Origin: a phage
Assembly: GCA_020241125.1 (NCBI GenBank)
Contig: GCA_020241125.1_4708.1
Direction: 5' to 3' (one strand)
DNA length: 64,000 bases
Shown here: in pieces, positions 2,535 to 62,760 of the stretch
Numbering within the stretch: the stretch's first letter is position 1
Layout: each line of letters starts with the position of its first letter
The notes under the pieces: generated by a model
Database searches by the model: none
Told to the model about the DNA's origin: nothing
What the model saw: only the letters and a program-made list of their open reading frames with translations
Program-made: the position numbers and the translations under genes

Positions 2535-2636
2535 AATGTTGGATTAAGTTAAATACCGCAACCGCAGCTAATTTTATAGGCTTTTAGCCTAAACCAATCA
2601 TCTTCGGAATCATCATCTTTGAAACAGGAATCTATC

Positions 2637-3458
2637 ATGGAAAAAGTATTTGTTTGTAAGTTGTTTACCAACGGCAATAGCCAACCAATGTATCTGACCG
2701 ATCCTGTTCTAGGTAATCGGAACAGTACCGTATTCAAAGAGGCTTTCGAATACGCTAAAAATAAAGCCGTGAGAACACTGACGTCTGATGACTGTATCAA
2801 CGGTATCACGTGGGCAGAGTTAATCGGTGATGCCGTTCGACACTTCGTTCGGGATGCGAGAAAACGGGAAATCTGTCTCACGACTATTGTTGTGCGTGAA
2901 AACGCAGAAATTTTATCAAACGTTTTGGTTGATTTTAATGACGTTTGTGTGTTTAATCCAGAGAACACGTTTGAACAATACCTTACTGCCCTGAACAACC
3001 AGCTCGGTAAAGATATTCATCCCGAATTCGCCAAGTTAACATATCAGTTACTTTTTGACGACGTCGATCCAAATACGAAGATCGATACCAGCTTATCGCC
3101 CCTGGTAAAGAAATACGGATCGGTTCTCGCTACGGCAACACCCACCACCGATGGTGGTTATGATATCGAATTGGATGATCCATTAAAAGAACAAGAGCCT
3201 ACTGGGGTTAGGGCGGTACATCACAACCTCGTCGTTAAATCTGATGGATGCGATGAACATTACGCTATGATAAACGATGAAAACAATTACCGTTTAAGTC
3301 AAGCGATTGGTGTTCTACGCTATACCGAACCCACTGTTGTAGACGATTATACATCGACAACAACGCACACCACGTGTTTCATTTTCATCTATCCCAATGA
3401 AAGTGTGTACATTACCGACTGCTATGGCAATACCGTAGATAGCTTACGTCGTTATTGA
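2637..3458 (+). CDS. hypothetical protein (273 aa)
   Basis: ORF 2619-3458 begins with TTG; ATG at 2637 with AGGA 8 nt upstream; followed by a classic UUCG-loop terminator at 3464-3491. Confidence 0.7.
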   Translation: MEKVFVCKLFTNGNSQPMYLTDPVLGNRNSTVFKEAFEYAKNKAVRTLTSDDCINGITWAELIGDAVRHFVRDARKREICLTTIVVRENAEILSNVLVDFNDVCVFNPENTFEQYLTALNNQLGKDIHPEFAKLTYQLLFDDVDPNTKIDTSLSPLVKKYGSVLATATPTTDGGYDIELDDPLKEQEPTGVRAVHHNLVVKSDGCDEHYAMINDENNYRLSQAIGVLRYTEPTVVDDYTSTTTHTTCFIFIYPNESVYITDCYGNTVDSLRRY

Positions 3459-3463
3459 TTATC

Positions 3464-3491
3464 GAGCCTGTCCTTCGGGGCAGGCTTTTTA
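3464..3491 (+). terminator. intrinsic terminator with UUCG tetraloop
   Basis: AGCCTGTCC-TTCG-GGGCAGGCT followed by TTTTTA, 6 nt after the stop of 2637-3458. Confidence 0.75.
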
Positions 3492-3561
3492 TGCTGTTAA
3501 ATATCAGGAATAAGAATTAACAAAATAGGAAAATGGTGTGTATATAACACAAAGGAGGGAG

Positions 3562-3684
3562 ATGATTATGTTACTCATTCTAATGGAGAGAGCATTGCTG
3601 GCGGGTATCTGCGCATTCTCTGTTAAACACGCTGTTGCTATCATGGCTGAAGAAAGGCGTAATACGCATAATGTATTACGCTGA
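3562..3684 (+). CDS. small hydrophobic peptide (40 aa), not in the ORF track
   Basis: Perfect SD AAAGGAGGGAG ending 1 nt before ATG 3562; translation MIMLLILMERALLAGICAFSVKHAVAIMAEERRNTHNVLR; TATATAAC element about 20 nt upstream. Confidence 0.45.
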   Translation: MIMLLILMERALLAGICAFSVKHAVAIMAEERRNTHNVLR

Positions 3685-3794
3685 AAACACTGTGTGCATT
3701 AGTGTATGACGAGAAATCGTCGAGGCCCCCGTCTTCACGAGGGCCAACACCTATGCATGATTATTCATCGTCTGTTAAACAAAAGGTTATAAAC

Positions 3795-4103
3795 ATGAGC
3801 AATTTGAACGTTGAATTTACTTCAACAACGCCTGTCATGAATGGTGTTGGCACTGAAACCAAAATCGTATTAGAACCCATTCCAGGGTTACGCGATCTCG
3901 GTGATTTTTATCCACTGATGCCGCGTATACGGAAGGCCTTAAACAGTATCGATCTTGATTCCAATAAAGATTTCCAACACGATACAGAAAATACCGATCA
4001 TGTATTGCTGCCATCAGGGATCGCAAAATTCACCTACACGCAAACATTGAAAGCCTCTGATGGTGAAATCCGTCGTTTTATCGTTGAAGTAGAAAGCGCA
4101 TAA
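3795..4103 (+). CDS. hypothetical protein (about 102 aa; ORF extends to 3702)
   Basis: ORF 3702-4103; the ATG at 3795 is the one with an AAGG-like RBS; ends 5 nt before conserved hairpin 4108-4139. Confidence 0.5.
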   Translation: MSNLNVEFTSTTPVMNGVGTETKIVLEPIPGLRDLGDFYPLMPRIRKALNSIDLDSNKDFQHDTENTDHVLLPSGIAKFTYTQTLKASDGEIRRFIVEVESA

Positions 4104-4107
4104 AAAC

Positions 4108-4139
4108 CATCCTCCCAACCCGTAAGGGAAGGGAGGATG
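4108..4139. terminator. conserved two-tier hairpin, family copy 1 (bidirectional)
   Basis: CATCCTCCC-AACCC-GTAA-GGG-AA-GGGAGGATG between convergent genes 3795-4103 and 4157-4786. Confidence 0.7.
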
Positions 4140-4156
4140 AAATATGCCGTTAAACG

Positions 4157-4786
4157 TTATTCAACAAACCCTGCATTCAACAGATTGTCGTAAACACGAT
4201 TAGCGACATCAACAGGAGAATGTGTGTTACTGGTATCTATACGCAGCGTTTTCGCGTCGCCGAGATAGTCCATAAAATCCATGTAACGATAACGTCGTTT
4301 ATTGAATGTCGCTTCATCGATGTTATCAAACATCTGATGTTTAGCGTGACGAACACGGAACCGCCTTAAATACGTAGGATAGTCGATATCCAGATAAACA
4401 TAGTAAGACGGCATGATAATCGACGGTAGGTTCGGCAACAATGCGTCAAACAACTTAACGTTGGCATCATTAACCTGATAAACATACGTCGAAGCAATCG
4501 AACGATCGCTAAGCACAGTCTTCCCTTCGTTAAGGGCTGGATGAATCACCTTGTTGAAGAGATGATTACGTTGCGACATCATCGCCAATAGTTCAGTTTC
4601 TGGATCGAATCTGTTCGTTGGTGTCTGATCTTCCAGGATAAGTTTACGAATGGCTTCTCCGTAGAGCGTACCACCGGGTTCACGTACGACACAGACGTTG
4701 TTTAAACGACTGTGTAAAGACGAGATAACCGAACTCTTTCCTGAATAATCCAGACCTTCAATAACGATATATTTATTACGAGACAT
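4157..4786 (-). CDS. tmk: thymidylate kinase (dTMP kinase)
   Basis: P-loop YIVIEGLDYSGKSS near the N-terminus and DRSIASTYVYQ, matching Tmk-family motifs; ATG 4786 with GGAG RBS (ORF track start 4798 is TTG). Confidence 0.8.
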   Translation of the reverse strand: MSRNKYIVIEGLDYSGKSSVISSLHSRLNNVCVVREPGGTLYGEAIRKLILEDQTPTNRFDPETELLAMMSQRNHLFNKVIHPALNEGKTVLSDRSIASTYVYQVNDANVKLFDALLPNLPSIIMPSYYVYLDIDYPTYLRRFRVRHAKHQMFDNIDEATFNKRRYRYMDFMDYLGDAKTLRIDTSNTHSPVDVANRVYDNLLNAGFVE

Positions 4787-4802
4787 TCCCCGCTCCAATT
4801 AA

Positions 4803-6029
4803 CTACTTCGTTTTCGCCGTTATCGGCTGCGATACTGTAATCTCGACCCGATCGACATCGGTACGTTTAACGATGATAAGGCTGCGTTCATCACCGAATG
4901 GTTCTGAGATCTTACAAGCCTCTTTAAGATTTTCGAGAATCGTGCCATGGGGTTCAAACACCGCAAAACCGGAACTAGCGTCGATTCTTATTAAATATAC
5001 ACGCACATTGTTTACGGTAATGGTGTCATCCGTCTTGAACCCACAGCAGGAGGGTAGACAGAACTGACCATTAACGCAATTAGCTAAGTATGCCTCACCA
5101 CCGAACATTTCTATTAACGTCACCGGTTTAAATGTTTTCTCTGGGAAAGCATTATTAAGAATATCGTTTCCATTCACAAACCAGATCGTTACTTTATCTT
5201 CGGAATACGCTAGTCTGTATGGTTGGGTTGCGGACGCCTGCGCTTTATGCTGGTTAAATAACTTTGATTTTGTCGCAATCACAGCACGACCTTGGGCGTC
5301 AAAGTACAGAACTTCATACCCAACACATCCGATAAACACGCGACGGTTATTAAGTTCCGGAATTCTGACTACTAACGCATTACCATCTTCCGTCGGTGTA
5401 ATACCACGTAGGATGATAGATTCGTTGTTCAATGTTGAGTTGCTCACGATGACGCTTCGCATTACCGCTGGCGACACTATTTCATCTGCTGCAGGTTCAA
5501 GTTGCTCCGCTGTTACAGTCACGGATCTGTCTTCCTTTTCAACTGGCCAGTTGAAAAGGATTGTTTTATTAAGACAAACAATTGGGGTAATTTCGCCGAT
5601 ACTCCGTATCTTGACTGAGGGGCAATTGCACACATACGGAACAAAAACATCAATATCGTTGGTCGCTTCTTCAAGCATGCTAGCATACGCCATTGCTTCG
5701 GGACGATCGGTGAGATGAATAACAGCATAGACGATATCGTCTTTTAACCACGCACGTTTCACTCGTCCTATAACACGATTGATGTCTACAATAACTCTCT
5801 GAGCTTTCATCTCCCATTTTACTGCATCAGTACCACCCGCAACCACGTTCGGTTTATCCGTGTTTACACGATGAAGGAAACTATTGATTATTTCCTCATC
5901 GATCTGGATATCCTTTCTCGCAAAATTCAACAACGGAATAACGAACTCATTGTTACCGCACTTCTCTGCTCCGCGAATGATAGGAGTACACTTCTTGTTC
6001 TCATCTGATCCCCAGATAACTTTAGTCAT
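4803..6029 (-). CDS. hypothetical protein (408 aa)
   Basis: ORF 4803-6056 begins with GTG; ATG 6029 has AAGGAAA RBS; N-terminus MTKVIWGSDENKK; no phosphoesterase motifs seen. Confidence 0.65.
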   Translation of the reverse strand: MTKVIWGSDENKKCTPIIRGAEKCGNNEFVIPLLNFARKDIQIDEEIINSFLHRVNTDKPNVVAGGTDAVKWEMKAQRVIVDINRVIGRVKRAWLKDDIVYAVIHLTDRPEAMAYASMLEEATNDIDVFVPYVCNCPSVKIRSIGEITPIVCLNKTILFNWPVEKEDRSVTVTAEQLEPAADEIVSPAVMRSVIVSNSTLNNESIILRGITPTEDGNALVVRIPELNNRRVFIGCVGYEVLYFDAQGRAVIATKSKLFNQHKAQASATQPYRLAYSEDKVTIWFVNGNDILNNAFPEKTFKPVTLIEMFGGEAYLANCVNGQFCLPSCCGFKTDDTITVNNVRVYLIRIDASSGFAVFEPHGTILENLKEACKISEPFGDERSLIIVKRTDVDRVEITVSQPITAKTK

Positions 6030-6062
6030 TTTCTGTTTCCTTCTTGGGTTTTGCACAAGTTT

Positions 6063-15811: not shown

Positions 15812-15846
15812 CCTTCCCCCGACCCGTAAGGGAAGGAGGAAGGGAG
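15812..15846 (-). terminator. conserved hairpin, family copy 3
   Basis: CCTTCCCCCGACCC-GTAA-GGGAAGGAGGAAGGG, 9 nt 3' of the stop of 15855-16748. Confidence 0.65.
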
Positions 15847-16887: not shown

Positions 16888-17433
16888 ATGTCTACTTTAG
16901 ACTTTAACAAAGCAGCGAAATCCCTTCTGCTTGATCTTATTAACACCAAAGCGACCCGCACATTGGCTGAAGAAGAACTGCAGTTCGGTACTCCGCAGGA
17001 ATCTTCCGAACATGAAAAGAACACCGTTATTCAGCTGGACGCGGCGGCTGAAGCAGCTAACCTGCAGGGTACTCAGCAGTTCTACTACGATCGTCTGGCT
17101 CTGTCTGACGTTTTCGCTGATGTAACTGGTGATGTTACTTTCGAACTGCCGCACGGTACTGACAGCATTCAGGCTTCTGAGCTGGTAAGCAAGCTGGTCA
17201 CCAAATTCGGTCTGGCTTCCCTGAATGGTGAAATCAGAGAAGAAACCTTCCAGCTGTCTGCCGGTACTGTTGGTGAGGTAATTCTGAATGCGATCGAGGG
17301 TGGCCTGGTATACACTGGTACTCTGCGAGTTGCCCTGACCTACGCACTGGCACCAAAAGACGAACTGGCAACCGTTCTGGCGAATAACGTAGCTGAAGGT
17401 TTCGAGAAACCGACCGTTAGCGTTGTTGGCTAA
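16888..17433 (+). CDS. abundant (codon-optimised) protein, paralog-family member
   Basis: ORF 16825-17433; ATG 16888 follows AGAGGA; strong codon bias; QFYYDRLALSDVF motif; divergent from 15855-16748. Confidence 0.75.
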   Translation: MSTLDFNKAAKSLLLDLINTKATRTLAEEELQFGTPQESSEHEKNTVIQLDAAAEAANLQGTQQFYYDRLALSDVFADVTGDVTFELPHGTDSIQASELVSKLVTKFGLASLNGEIREETFQLSAGTVGEVILNAIEGGLVYTGTLRVALTYALAPKDELATVLANNVAEGFEKPTVSVVG

Positions 17434-17632
17434 TAAGCACATAGAGCAATAGTATGGGTTTTGTACAGCTCGGCTATTGATCTTCTACAATTTGGTTGTA
17501 ACAATCTGCGTGGTTGCACGCTTATCTTTCTCATTGAACGCTTCGTATGAAGCGTGGTGTTGAAAGGGTTGTGGATCTCCTCAAGCGGCCAGGGACCCAG
17601 ACCAACCTGAATAAACACAAACACATGTTAAG

Positions 17633-17664
17633 CCCCTCCTCATCCGTTATTGGGTGGGGGGGGG
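17633..17664 (-). terminator. degenerate family-like hairpin with G9 tract
   Basis: CCCCTCCTCA ... TGGGTGGGGGGGGG with the same upstream context (AATAAACACAAACA) as copy 3; 3' of the endolysin gene. Confidence 0.35.
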
Positions 17665-17727
17665 TCTTATACGTCTTTATGCGTTCCGTTCGTTCTGGAG
17701 CGTTTTAGGACGGTTTATGATGGTGTT

Positions 17728-27767: not shown

Positions 27768-27799
27768 CCCTCCTCCAACCCGTAAGGGAAGGAGGAGGG
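27768..27799. terminator. conserved hairpin, family copy 4 (bidirectional)
   Basis: CCCTCCTCC-AACCC-GTAA-GGG-AA-GGAGGAGGG between convergent genes 26477-27757 and 27809-28714. Confidence 0.7.
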
Positions 27800-27808
27800 A
27801 ATATGCTG

Positions 27809-43287: not shown

Positions 43288-43330
43288 AGCGTCAAATTTT
43301 TTCTATTCGCAACAATAAACGGCATAGAAA

Positions 43331-43360
43331 CCTCCCCCAACCCTTGCGGGCTGAGGGAGG
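43331..43360 (-). terminator. conserved hairpin, family copy 6 (variant loop), 3' of the capsid candidate
   Basis: CCTCCC-CCAA-CCC-TTGC-GGG-CTGA-GGGAGG. Confidence 0.6.
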
Positions 43361-43459
43361 CTGACTTATGTATCACGGTGCCGGATGAATGTCCGGTGCA
43401 ATGAAACCATCCGCAACGTTGTCGTCAAGAATATCATCCAACGAAGCAGCTACGGTAGT

Positions 43460-48106: not shown

Positions 48107-48163
48107 AAAAAAAAAAAAAGATTGTGCGGTTCCCTCCTCCAACCCGTAAGGGAAGGAGGAGGG
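48107..48163. terminator. conserved hairpin, family copy 7, with A13/T13 run
   Basis: CCCTCCTCC-AACCC-GTAA-GGG-AA-GGAGGAGGG (48132-48163) plus A13 at 48107-48119; between convergent genes. Confidence 0.75.
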
Positions 48164-48179
48164 GTTATGACCGCTTTGA

Positions 48180-62728: not shown

Positions 62729-62760
62729 CCTTCCTCCAACCCAACAGGGAAGGAGGAAGG
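62729..62760 (-). terminator. conserved hairpin, family copy 9
   Basis: CCTTCCTCC-AACCC-AACA-GGG-AA-GGAGGAAGG, 3' of 62771-63922. Confidence 0.7.

Follow-up and report, generated by a model that had tools for sequence, protein, structure and literature searches.

A known micro-gene with a strong ribosome-binding site beside conserved hairpins in a Goslar-like jumbo phage

Escherichia phage vB_EcoM_Goslar is a nucleus-forming jumbo phage of E. coli (Chimalliviridae). The subject of this work is a short open reading frame (ORF), gp6, and its surroundings in a contig that closely resembles this phage (GCA_020241125.1_4708.1 of the NCBI GenBank assembly GCA_020241125.1). The analysed stretch of 64,000 nucleotides (nt) is called the window and all positions refer to it. 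We suggest, tentatively, that gp6 is a translated micro-cistron whose peptide, gp006, is weakly constrained and which lies inside a late RNA and promoter module that is constrained at the nucleotide level. Several described systems resemble this locus in part.

The 5′ stabilisers of mRNA which act by ribosome docking, for example the STAB-SD of Bacillus thuringiensis cryIIIA or the leader ORF of ermC, resemble gp6 in that a highly expressed structural gene is preceded, near the 5′ end of an RNA, by an unusually strong Shine–Dalgarno (SD) sequence and a very short ORF, and in that the sequence of the peptide would be unimportant. In the case of gp6, however, the stop codon of the ORF and the start of the next gene, gp7, lie 110 nt apart with two candidate TATG promoters between them; co-transcription of the two is hypothetical. 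Further, the host of Goslar is Gram-negative and the phage nucleus uncouples transcription from translation. The type I toxins Hok, TisB and Ldr are, like gp006, helical hydrophobic peptides of less than 60 amino acids (aa), and their mRNAs are conserved including the synonymous sites and carry stable hairpins; in contrast, gp6 has no identified antisense RNA or promoter, its SD sequence is unsequestered in the predicted folds and it belongs to a strictly lytic jumbo phage. Holins and antiholins are also small, with a hydrophobic N-terminal part, a charged C-terminal tail and late expression, and they can have Met codons one codon apart as in the dual-start motif S105/S107 of phage lambda. However, gp006 with its 38 aa is much shorter, lacks an uninterrupted segment of transmembrane (TM) length, has no basic residue between the two Met codons, lies outside a lysis cassette and matches no family. 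Finally, the non-virion RNA polymerase (nvRNAP) of phage phiKZ recognises TATG and starts transcription at the G (PMC12809450). As with the late promoters of phiKZ, TATG occurs at three places around gp6, expression is nucleus-dependent and a module of a hairpin followed by TATG is enriched in the window; but the consensus is that of phiKZ and may not be that of Goslar, and TATG, a short motif, is common in the window (298 copies).

The gene itself is already known. Bases 2600–4800 of the window are 97.2% identical, over their full length, to Goslar (MK327938/NC_048170), and across the whole ORF the DNA of the two is identical. The ORF is the annotated CDS Goslar_00006/HOV27_gp006 (QBO63799.1), deposited in GenBank and RefSeq as an orphan hypothetical protein of 38 aa which starts at the second of two in-frame ATGs (3568). 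The gp006 of the window is 100% identical to QBO63799.1 over 38 aa (tblastn E = 6e-18). A first, sequence-only reading of the window had called the ORF unannotated, which holds only for the ORF list that was available to it. Sequence and position are those of Goslar_00006 and the sole departure is a start two codons earlier (ATG 3562). As first stated, the finding thus adds nothing to the public annotation. Per-gene RNA-seq counts for gp006 were found in published work and no function has been published.

We compared 19 Goslar-like genomes or contigs covering the locus, which were collected by contig look-ups and DNA pattern scans. In the annotation of Goslar the ORF sits between gp5 with its annotated terminator and gp7, and the order gp5, terminator, gp6, gp7 and thymidylate kinase is the same in all relatives. 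The protein searches returned nine clusters of 38 aa with 84–97% identity, all Goslar-like, and besides these one spurious match to a protein of 492 aa. A scan of metagenomes added seven Goslar-like loci and also hit three sequences by chance; two matches of viral contigs to hairpin 2 were likewise dismissed as chance. The complete E. coli genomes and a collection of species-representative genomes held no further gp6 loci, and with the thymidylate kinase as bait only the same three viral contigs were retrieved. No further copy of the leader, the ORF or the hairpin block turned up in the window or in the rest of Goslar, where the 103-nt block occurs once. One relative (L010, ENA scaffold ERZ28649724, where 5634–6000 corresponds to 2630–3412 of the window) has lost most of gp5. 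What remains of this gene is only the part corresponding to 3190–3268 and its last 46 nt, with the gp5 terminator, gp6, the hairpins and gp7 all kept at 97.6% identity. This retention fits gp6 being a self-contained unit.

The comparison of the relatives clearly points to selection on the DNA or RNA of the region, and the peaks of conservation are three near-invariant hairpins (Table 1). The spacer in front of gp7 (3758–3794) carries 0.84 variants per site and several 1-nt indels. The leader has 0.37 variants per site and codons 1–30 of the ORF have 0.31 (p = 6e-8 against the spacer); the values drop to 0.04 in hairpin 1 and to 0.05 in hairpins 2 and 3 (3708–3746). Positions 3660–3688 are fully invariant and no synonymous change is found in the last seven codons (32–38). 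The first eight codons of the ORF are also nearly invariant at the nucleotide level, and the 62 nt from 3695 to 3756 hold two singleton variants only. Among third codon positions 12 of 30 vary in the ORF versus 62 of 86 in the neighbouring genes (p = 0.0036).

Hairpin 1 has a stability of −11 to −13 kcal/mol (−11.3 to −12.7), and its sole internal change, C3658T, keeps a G-U pair. The one variant of hairpin 3 (C3729T in relative L015) turns the C-A mismatch into a U-A pair. The region folds more stably than shuffled sequences (z = −2.5). Compensatory double changes were found in none of 68 predicted pairs, a comparison which has no power as the stems hardly vary. The hairpins are therefore supported by conservation and thermodynamics and not by covariation. 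An alternative long hairpin proposed by RNAalifold (3662–3707) was rejected in favour of hairpin 1, since it is less stable (−9.2 vs −11.3 kcal/mol) and has no covariation support either. We also rejected the three hairpins as intrinsic terminators. No U-tract follows them; on the plus strand they are followed by TGAAAAC, by a 2-nt GA linker with hairpin 3, and by AACACC, respectively. A GC-rich stem with a direct U-tract is present only in the gp5 terminator. The sole match in Rfam 15 is to ROSE_2, with 15.7 bits at a gathering threshold of 65, and it lies on the gp5 terminator; neither a tRNA nor a tmRNA was found in the window.

The ribosome-binding site of gp6 is the strongest of the window. 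The purine run AAAGGAGGGAG pairs with the 3′ end of 16S rRNA with −12.1 kcal/mol and ranks first among about 73 starts of long ORFs (median −5.8). The near-perfect SD sequence noted at the outset is thus real. The distances first given, 1 nt from the run to ATG 3562 and about 5 nt from the core, need correction. The run directly abuts this ATG with 0 nt between, and the AGGAGG core (3553–3558) is 3 nt away from it, which is too short, and 9 nt away from the second ATG (3568–3570), which is near optimal. No codon of the ORF varies more than the one between the two ATGs (3565–3567), which codes for Ile, Thr or Asn, and this variability fits the role of a spacer. Because of the spacing and the variable codon, ATG 3562 is probably not the main start, and the likely start is ATG 3568, which gives 38 aa, as chosen by the annotators of Goslar. 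From the 40-codon ORF proposed initially the two ATGs, the frame, the stop codon TGA (3682–3684) and the translation MIMLLILMERALLAGICAFSVKHAVAIMAEERRNTHNVLR hold; the upstream start and the length probably do not. In the relatives ATG 3562 is kept in all 19 sequences, and position 3568 is ATG in 18 and GTG in one.

An SD sequence of this strength occurs ahead of a start codon 10 times in 128 kb, mostly within terminator stems, and the AGGAGG strings of this genome in general lie mostly in terminator stems. The length of the ORF alone is not significant, as an ATG opens 38 codons or more in 16% of cases in shuffled sequence and in 37% of cases in the real one. The codon usage score of the ORF, 0.249 per codon, compares with 0.34 for real genes and −0.10 for spurious ORFs, and the frame of the ORF is the best of six. 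This score lies within the distribution of real genes and is exceeded by 6.8% of spurious ORFs, corresponding to a likelihood ratio of about 3 for coding. Judged on these data, neither ORF length nor SD sequence is decisive alone; it is the conservation in 19 related genomes that raises the site above chance. In favour of translation are codon usage, the strongest SD sequence of the window and a confident single-helix model (see below). On the minus strand a 46-aa ORF (3644–3504) was rejected: it has no SD sequence, and the ratio of non-synonymous to synonymous differences per site (pN/pS) is about 3 in its frame. A second start behind an equally strong SD sequence (−12.5 to −12.8 kcal/mol) lies at about 17624–17626 on the minus strand, in the gap 17025–17727. 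It opens ORFs of 64 and 31 codons and adjoins an annotated terminator, so that its SD sequence may be just the stem of a hairpin.

The gp6 locus is transcribed. Per-gene read counts at 30 min are given in Supplementary Table 2 of Armbruster et al. (bioRxiv 10.1101/2023.09.20.558163 v2). For gp006 there are 111, 137 and 117 reads in the controls versus one read in each of the three samples with knock-down of ChmA. The neighbours gp005 (411–584 vs 1–6 reads) and gp007 (284–383 vs 1–4 reads) behave alike, and gp001–004 are not reduced by the knock-down (log2 change +0.2 to +1.3) in the same data (10.1101/2023.09.20.558163). Since the knock-down of ChmA abolishes the reads of gp006, the gp6 locus belongs to the nucleus-dependent (middle/late) class. 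Read densities per nt are about 1.0 for gp6, 1.1 for gp7 and 0.6 for gp5. Transcription of the locus makes a small translated gene plausible. Between gp4 and gp5, a divergent intergenic region (2487–2636) parts the early block gp1–4 from the nucleus-dependent genes gp5–13, which are down 16- to 100-fold or more, and about 30 nt upstream of gp4 there is a sequence similar to phiKZ early promoters (TATATTAC, minus strand at 2525).

The terminator of gp5 is invariant in the 19 genomes except for the length of its T-run, and its 3′ part passes into a TATG (context TTTTTATGCTGTT, 3486–3498); the string TATGCTGT recurs in modules near 27802 and 56797. Within the window, 13 of 94 strong hairpins have a TATG no more than 13 nt behind them, with 2.2 expected (p = 3e-7); the gp5 terminator is of this class, which also includes a bidirectional palindromic repeat of about 32 nt (see below). 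The sequence thus suggests a transcription start near G3493 for the gp6 unit. The second TATG is embedded in a conserved block which extends 10 nt upstream and 48 nt downstream. No sigma-70 promoters were found in the region, and these are probably irrelevant in this phage family. At 3541 the sequence TATATAAC resembles an early promoter of phiKZ; this candidate was discarded because it is not conserved (the relatives have AATATAAC or ATTATAAC) and the expression is nucleus-dependent and not early. The idea that late transcripts start with a 5′ hairpin at the G of TATG was also given up, as this applies to 12.4% of TATG sites versus 12.2% of random G positions.

The peptide gp006 is modelled by AlphaFold2, from a shallow alignment, as one continuous helix comprising residues 2–39 with a mean pLDDT of 84. 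Its N-terminal 27 residues are hydrophobic, broken by E-R and K-H, and are followed by a charged tail; among its segments are MLLILMER, ALLAGICAFSVK, HAVAIMAEER and NTHNVLR. The basic C-terminus noted in the sequence-only reading is encoded by hairpin 1. The same reading saw a peptide like a single TM helix. The single helix is borne out by the model, and the best Kyte–Doolittle mean over 19 residues is 1.97 (classical threshold 1.6). On the other side, the longest stretch free of charged residues or His has only 11 residues and a crude, position-independent sum on the Hessa scale amounts to +2.3 kcal/mol, so that the case is borderline. This sum resembles that of some small membrane toxins including TisB, which is a rough guide only. 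Insertion of gp006 into the membrane is possible but not confidently predicted from these values.

We now weigh how this locus should be understood. Our preferred reading is held at a little less than even confidence: gp6 would be translated as a micro-cistron, its peptide would be weakly constrained, and it would lie in a late RNA and promoter module with constraint at the nucleotide level. We count in its favour the identity and synteny with Goslar_00006, the nucleus-dependent transcription, the hairpin-then-TATG module upstream, the retention of the unit in L010, the helix model and the low variation of the ORF and hairpins compared with the spacer. Against it has to be set that the peptide leaves hardly any trace in the comparative data. 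In an alignment of nine genomes the pairwise pN/pS of the ORF is 1.1–2.3 versus 0.01–0.22 in nine flanking genes. The source of the high ratio is a synonymous diversity 4–8 times below that of the neighbours, with a non-synonymous diversity as high or higher. In codons 2–37 of the 19 sequences we counted 13 synonymous and 15 non-synonymous unique variants, where a synonymous fraction of 0.33 is expected without protein constraint, given that 24 of the 28 variants are transitions (binomial p = 0.105); this corresponds to an omega of about 0.6, the interval of which contains 1. The variants distribute over the three codon positions as 11/5/12, compared to 7/9/62 for gp5 and gp7 where they adjoin the locus (chi-square p = 0.0004), and a uniform profile explains them better than the profile of the neighbours by 9.3 nats. 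Purifying selection at the protein level is thus not demonstrable, and from the sequences the peptide appears to be at best weakly constrained. Further, gp006 does not occur in the part of Table S4 of the 2026 Goslar virion preprint (10.64898/2026.04.21.720040) that the analysis covered, and no ribosome-profiling or whole-cell proteomic evidence for it was found in the literature. Homologues beyond the Goslar group were found neither by tblastn (50,697 phage records) nor by a word-indexed search (5.8 billion proteins) nor by a profile search (1.84 billion representatives). There may be no functional peptide at all, and we regard it as a serious possibility, although one with a chance clearly below one half, that the locus is a nucleic-acid module between gp5 and gp7. 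Such a module would comprise a leader with strong ribosome docking, the three hairpins and TATG elements which set the level or stability of gp7 mRNA, or would be a separate structured RNA of about 250 nt; the ORF would be incidental, or only its translation would matter, as in a 5′ stabiliser or leader ORF. The near-even codon positions, the pN/pS at or above 1, the constraint on the synonymous sites themselves, the location of the most conserved stretches in hairpin 1 and in the non-coding block 3695–3756, and the stable fold all agree with this explanation. The same is true for the weak SD sequence of gp7, a protein of high copy number (see below). Nor does the conservation of the frame say much for a peptide. 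The sequence-only reading had proposed to look for ORF and SD sequence in relatives, and indeed the frame, the stop codon and the AGGAG core are kept in 19 of 19 sequences, with the start retained through all nine protein clusters and no indel in the ORF. This test has little power: by an estimate from codon content, 28 variants that are mostly transitions would leave the frame open in about 82% of neutral histories. Open-frame conservation is nearly uninformative because almost all stop-creating changes would be transversions, which are rare here. What keeps us from abandoning the peptide is the following. Of the six frames, the annotated one shows the highest synonymous fraction, and the nucleotide diversity by codon position follows the order 3>1>2 (pi of 0.096, 0.059 and 0.025). 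Codon usage and frame ranking mildly favour coding; no compensatory change and no Rfam match argue for a structured RNA; the distance to gp7 with the two candidate promoters between is awkward for a leader; and an SD sequence of −12 kcal/mol located 9 nt before an ATG on a real transcript is hard for ribosomes to ignore.

A dual function is unlikely in our view. An RNA made late, about 250 nt long and reaching from the TATG behind the gp5 terminator to hairpin 3, could serve as mRNA for a dispensable helical micro-peptide and at the same time as structured RNA, with the three invariant hairpins bound by phage or host RNA-handling factors (for example for mRNA export or stabilisation at the phage nucleus) and setting the output of gp7 in cis. 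The sequence-only reading had thought of a toxin, a holin-like factor or a regulator of host membrane proteins. A membrane-inserted peptide of this kind, including an arrangement like a type I toxin, might be read from the hydrophobic N-terminal two-thirds with the charged tail and the single-helix model, from the Kyte–Doolittle mean above the threshold and from the crude Hessa sum similar to that of TisB. The two in-frame Met codons one codon apart recall the dual starts of holins, conservation of the whole mRNA recalls the hok-type mRNAs, and expression is late. But a holin would have at least one TM segment of about 18–20 uncharged residues, for which gp006 is a borderline case: it has no uninterrupted hydrophobic stretch of TM length, and with only 11 residues in a row free of charge or His either E-R or K-H would sit in the bilayer. 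Its 38 aa are below the usual size of holins and the residue between the Met codons is Ile, Thr or Asn and not basic. The neighbours are gp5 (function not assigned), the virion protein gp7 and thymidylate kinase, with no endolysin and no lysis or toxin–antitoxin context. No antisense promoter or RNA is evident, the SD sequence is not sequestered in the predicted folds, the minus-strand ORF and frames are without coding signal, and a minus-strand TATG in the loop of hairpin 1 is meaningless alone. Added to the weak or absent constraint on the peptide and to the lack of any match to gp006 in PHROGs and Pfam at E ≤ 1, this makes such a function quite improbable. Still more improbable, to a degree that we hardly reckon with it, is a chance ORF in neutral intergenic DNA which gene finders called only for its purine run. 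Its length is indeed common, and strong SD-like strings of this genome are found mostly in terminator stems; yet the ORF varies far less than the spacer, has no indels and is accompanied by near-invariant blocks, and the region is transcribed and was kept where gp5 is mostly deleted. Overall, the initial reading is partly supported; its specific ideas on function find no support.

Returning to the preferred reading of gp6 as a translated micro-cistron, we suggest that its expression could proceed as follows. The gene would form a short unit of transcription that needs the phage nucleus for its expression. The RNA would probably begin at the TATG behind the gp5 terminator, near 3493, with a 75-nt leader bearing the strongest ribosome-binding site of the window. 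Host ribosomes would most likely start at ATG 3568 and produce a 38-residue, single-helix hydrophobic peptide with a charged tail. The hairpins most likely form the 3′ boundary or a stabiliser of the short gp6 RNA, and together with the embedded TATG motifs they likely act as promoter and leader of gp7.

Table 1. Features of the gp6 locus with their positions in the window
Feature	Position	Strand	Basis or remark
gp5 intrinsic terminator, 10-bp GC-rich hairpin, TTCG loop, T-run	3464–3490	+	terminator scan; annotated in Goslar
TATG, candidate phiKZ-type nvRNAP promoter of the gp6 unit, start G3493	3490–3493	+	hairpin-then-TATG module
Putative 5′ leader, AT-rich	3494–3550	+	near-invariant block 3506–3525
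SD run AAAGGAGGGAG	3551–3561	+	AGGAG core 3553–3557 invariant in 19/19 genomes
First in-frame ATG	3562–3564	+	3 nt past the AGGAGG core; unlikely to be the main start
Micro-ORF, 38 codons + TGA	3568–3684	+	Goslar_00006/HOV27_gp006
Hairpin 1, perfect 9-bp stem GCGTAATAC/GTATTACGC, 7-nt loop	3657–3681	+	covers codons 31–38, ends at the stop codon
Variable patch between conserved blocks	3689–3694	+	variation map
Second TATG, candidate gp7 mRNA start	3705–3708	+	invariant; G3708 is the first base of hairpin 2
Hairpin 2, GACGA-GAAA-TCGTC, 5-bp stem, GNRA-type loop	3708–3721	+	invariant in all genomes covering it
Hairpin 3, GGCCC.CGU-CUUC-ACG.GGGCC, 8 bp, one C-A mismatch	3724–3745	+	no U-tract follows
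Third TATG (TATGC), alternative gp7 promoter	3752–3755	+	invariant; 6 nt past hairpin 3; conservation ends at 3757
Fast-evolving spacer	3758–3794	+	ends in the weak gp7 ribosome-binding site (AAGG)
gp7, 102 aa, virion protein, possibly co-transcribed with gp6	3795–4103	+	virion mass spectrometry, RNA-seq

The gene downstream of the hairpins encodes a major constituent of the particle. According to the Goslar virion preprint gp7 is among the proteins with more than 200 copies per virion, and its Table S4 lists about 250 copies of HOV27_gp007 and about 8 of gp005 (10.64898/2026.04.21.720040). Despite these roughly 250 copies the SD sequence of gp7 has only −3.4 kcal/mol and is among the weakest of the window. 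An N-terminal extension of gp7 from GTG 3702 was rejected, as it is broken by independent 1-nt indels in relatives. No homologue of gp7 was found outside the Goslar group. For gp5 there are weak homologues in Erwinia Machinavirus phages; the DNA downstream of them is unrelated and without a comparable ORF. In the Erwinia phages pEa_SNUABM_9 (L016) and Caitlin (L017) these homologues lie directly downstream of a tRNA cluster, and behind each of them come a terminator and a conserved TATCCTATATTTTTTTGGATATATATCA motif. No tRNA is present in the 64-kb window.

Two further observations concern other parts of the window. A palindromic intergenic repeat of about 32 nt (CCCTCCTCC-AACCCGTAAGGGAA-GGAGGAGGG) occurs at 4108–4139, 15812–15843, 27768–27799, 48131–48164 and 62729–62760, with a variant at 43329–43362. 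It forms a bidirectional hairpin with TATG within a few bases on both sides and looks like a combined terminator and late-promoter module. The gene corresponding to gp9 of Goslar (4803–6056, minus strand), coding for a hypothetical protein of 400 aa, is hypervariable among Goslar-like genomes. Its pairwise diversity reaches 0.45 per site versus about 0.03–0.07 in the flanking genes and the products have 393–408 aa, a pattern that points to diversifying selection or to an exchange of cassettes.

Small hydrophobic ORFans are well known from phages. What is mildly unusual about gp6 is the combination of a very strong translation signal with no detectable selection on the peptide, beside invariant hairpins and a virion gene of high copy number. 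We draw a caution from this: the gene call leans on a strong ribosome-binding site, and the comparative data show selection on RNA or DNA features and not on the peptide. Goslar is under development as a genetic model, and even so the significance of the locus is incremental. Should the hairpin block serve a virion protein of high copy number as promoter, leader or stabiliser element, it would be among the first defined cis-regulatory modules in a nucleus-forming phage of E. coli.

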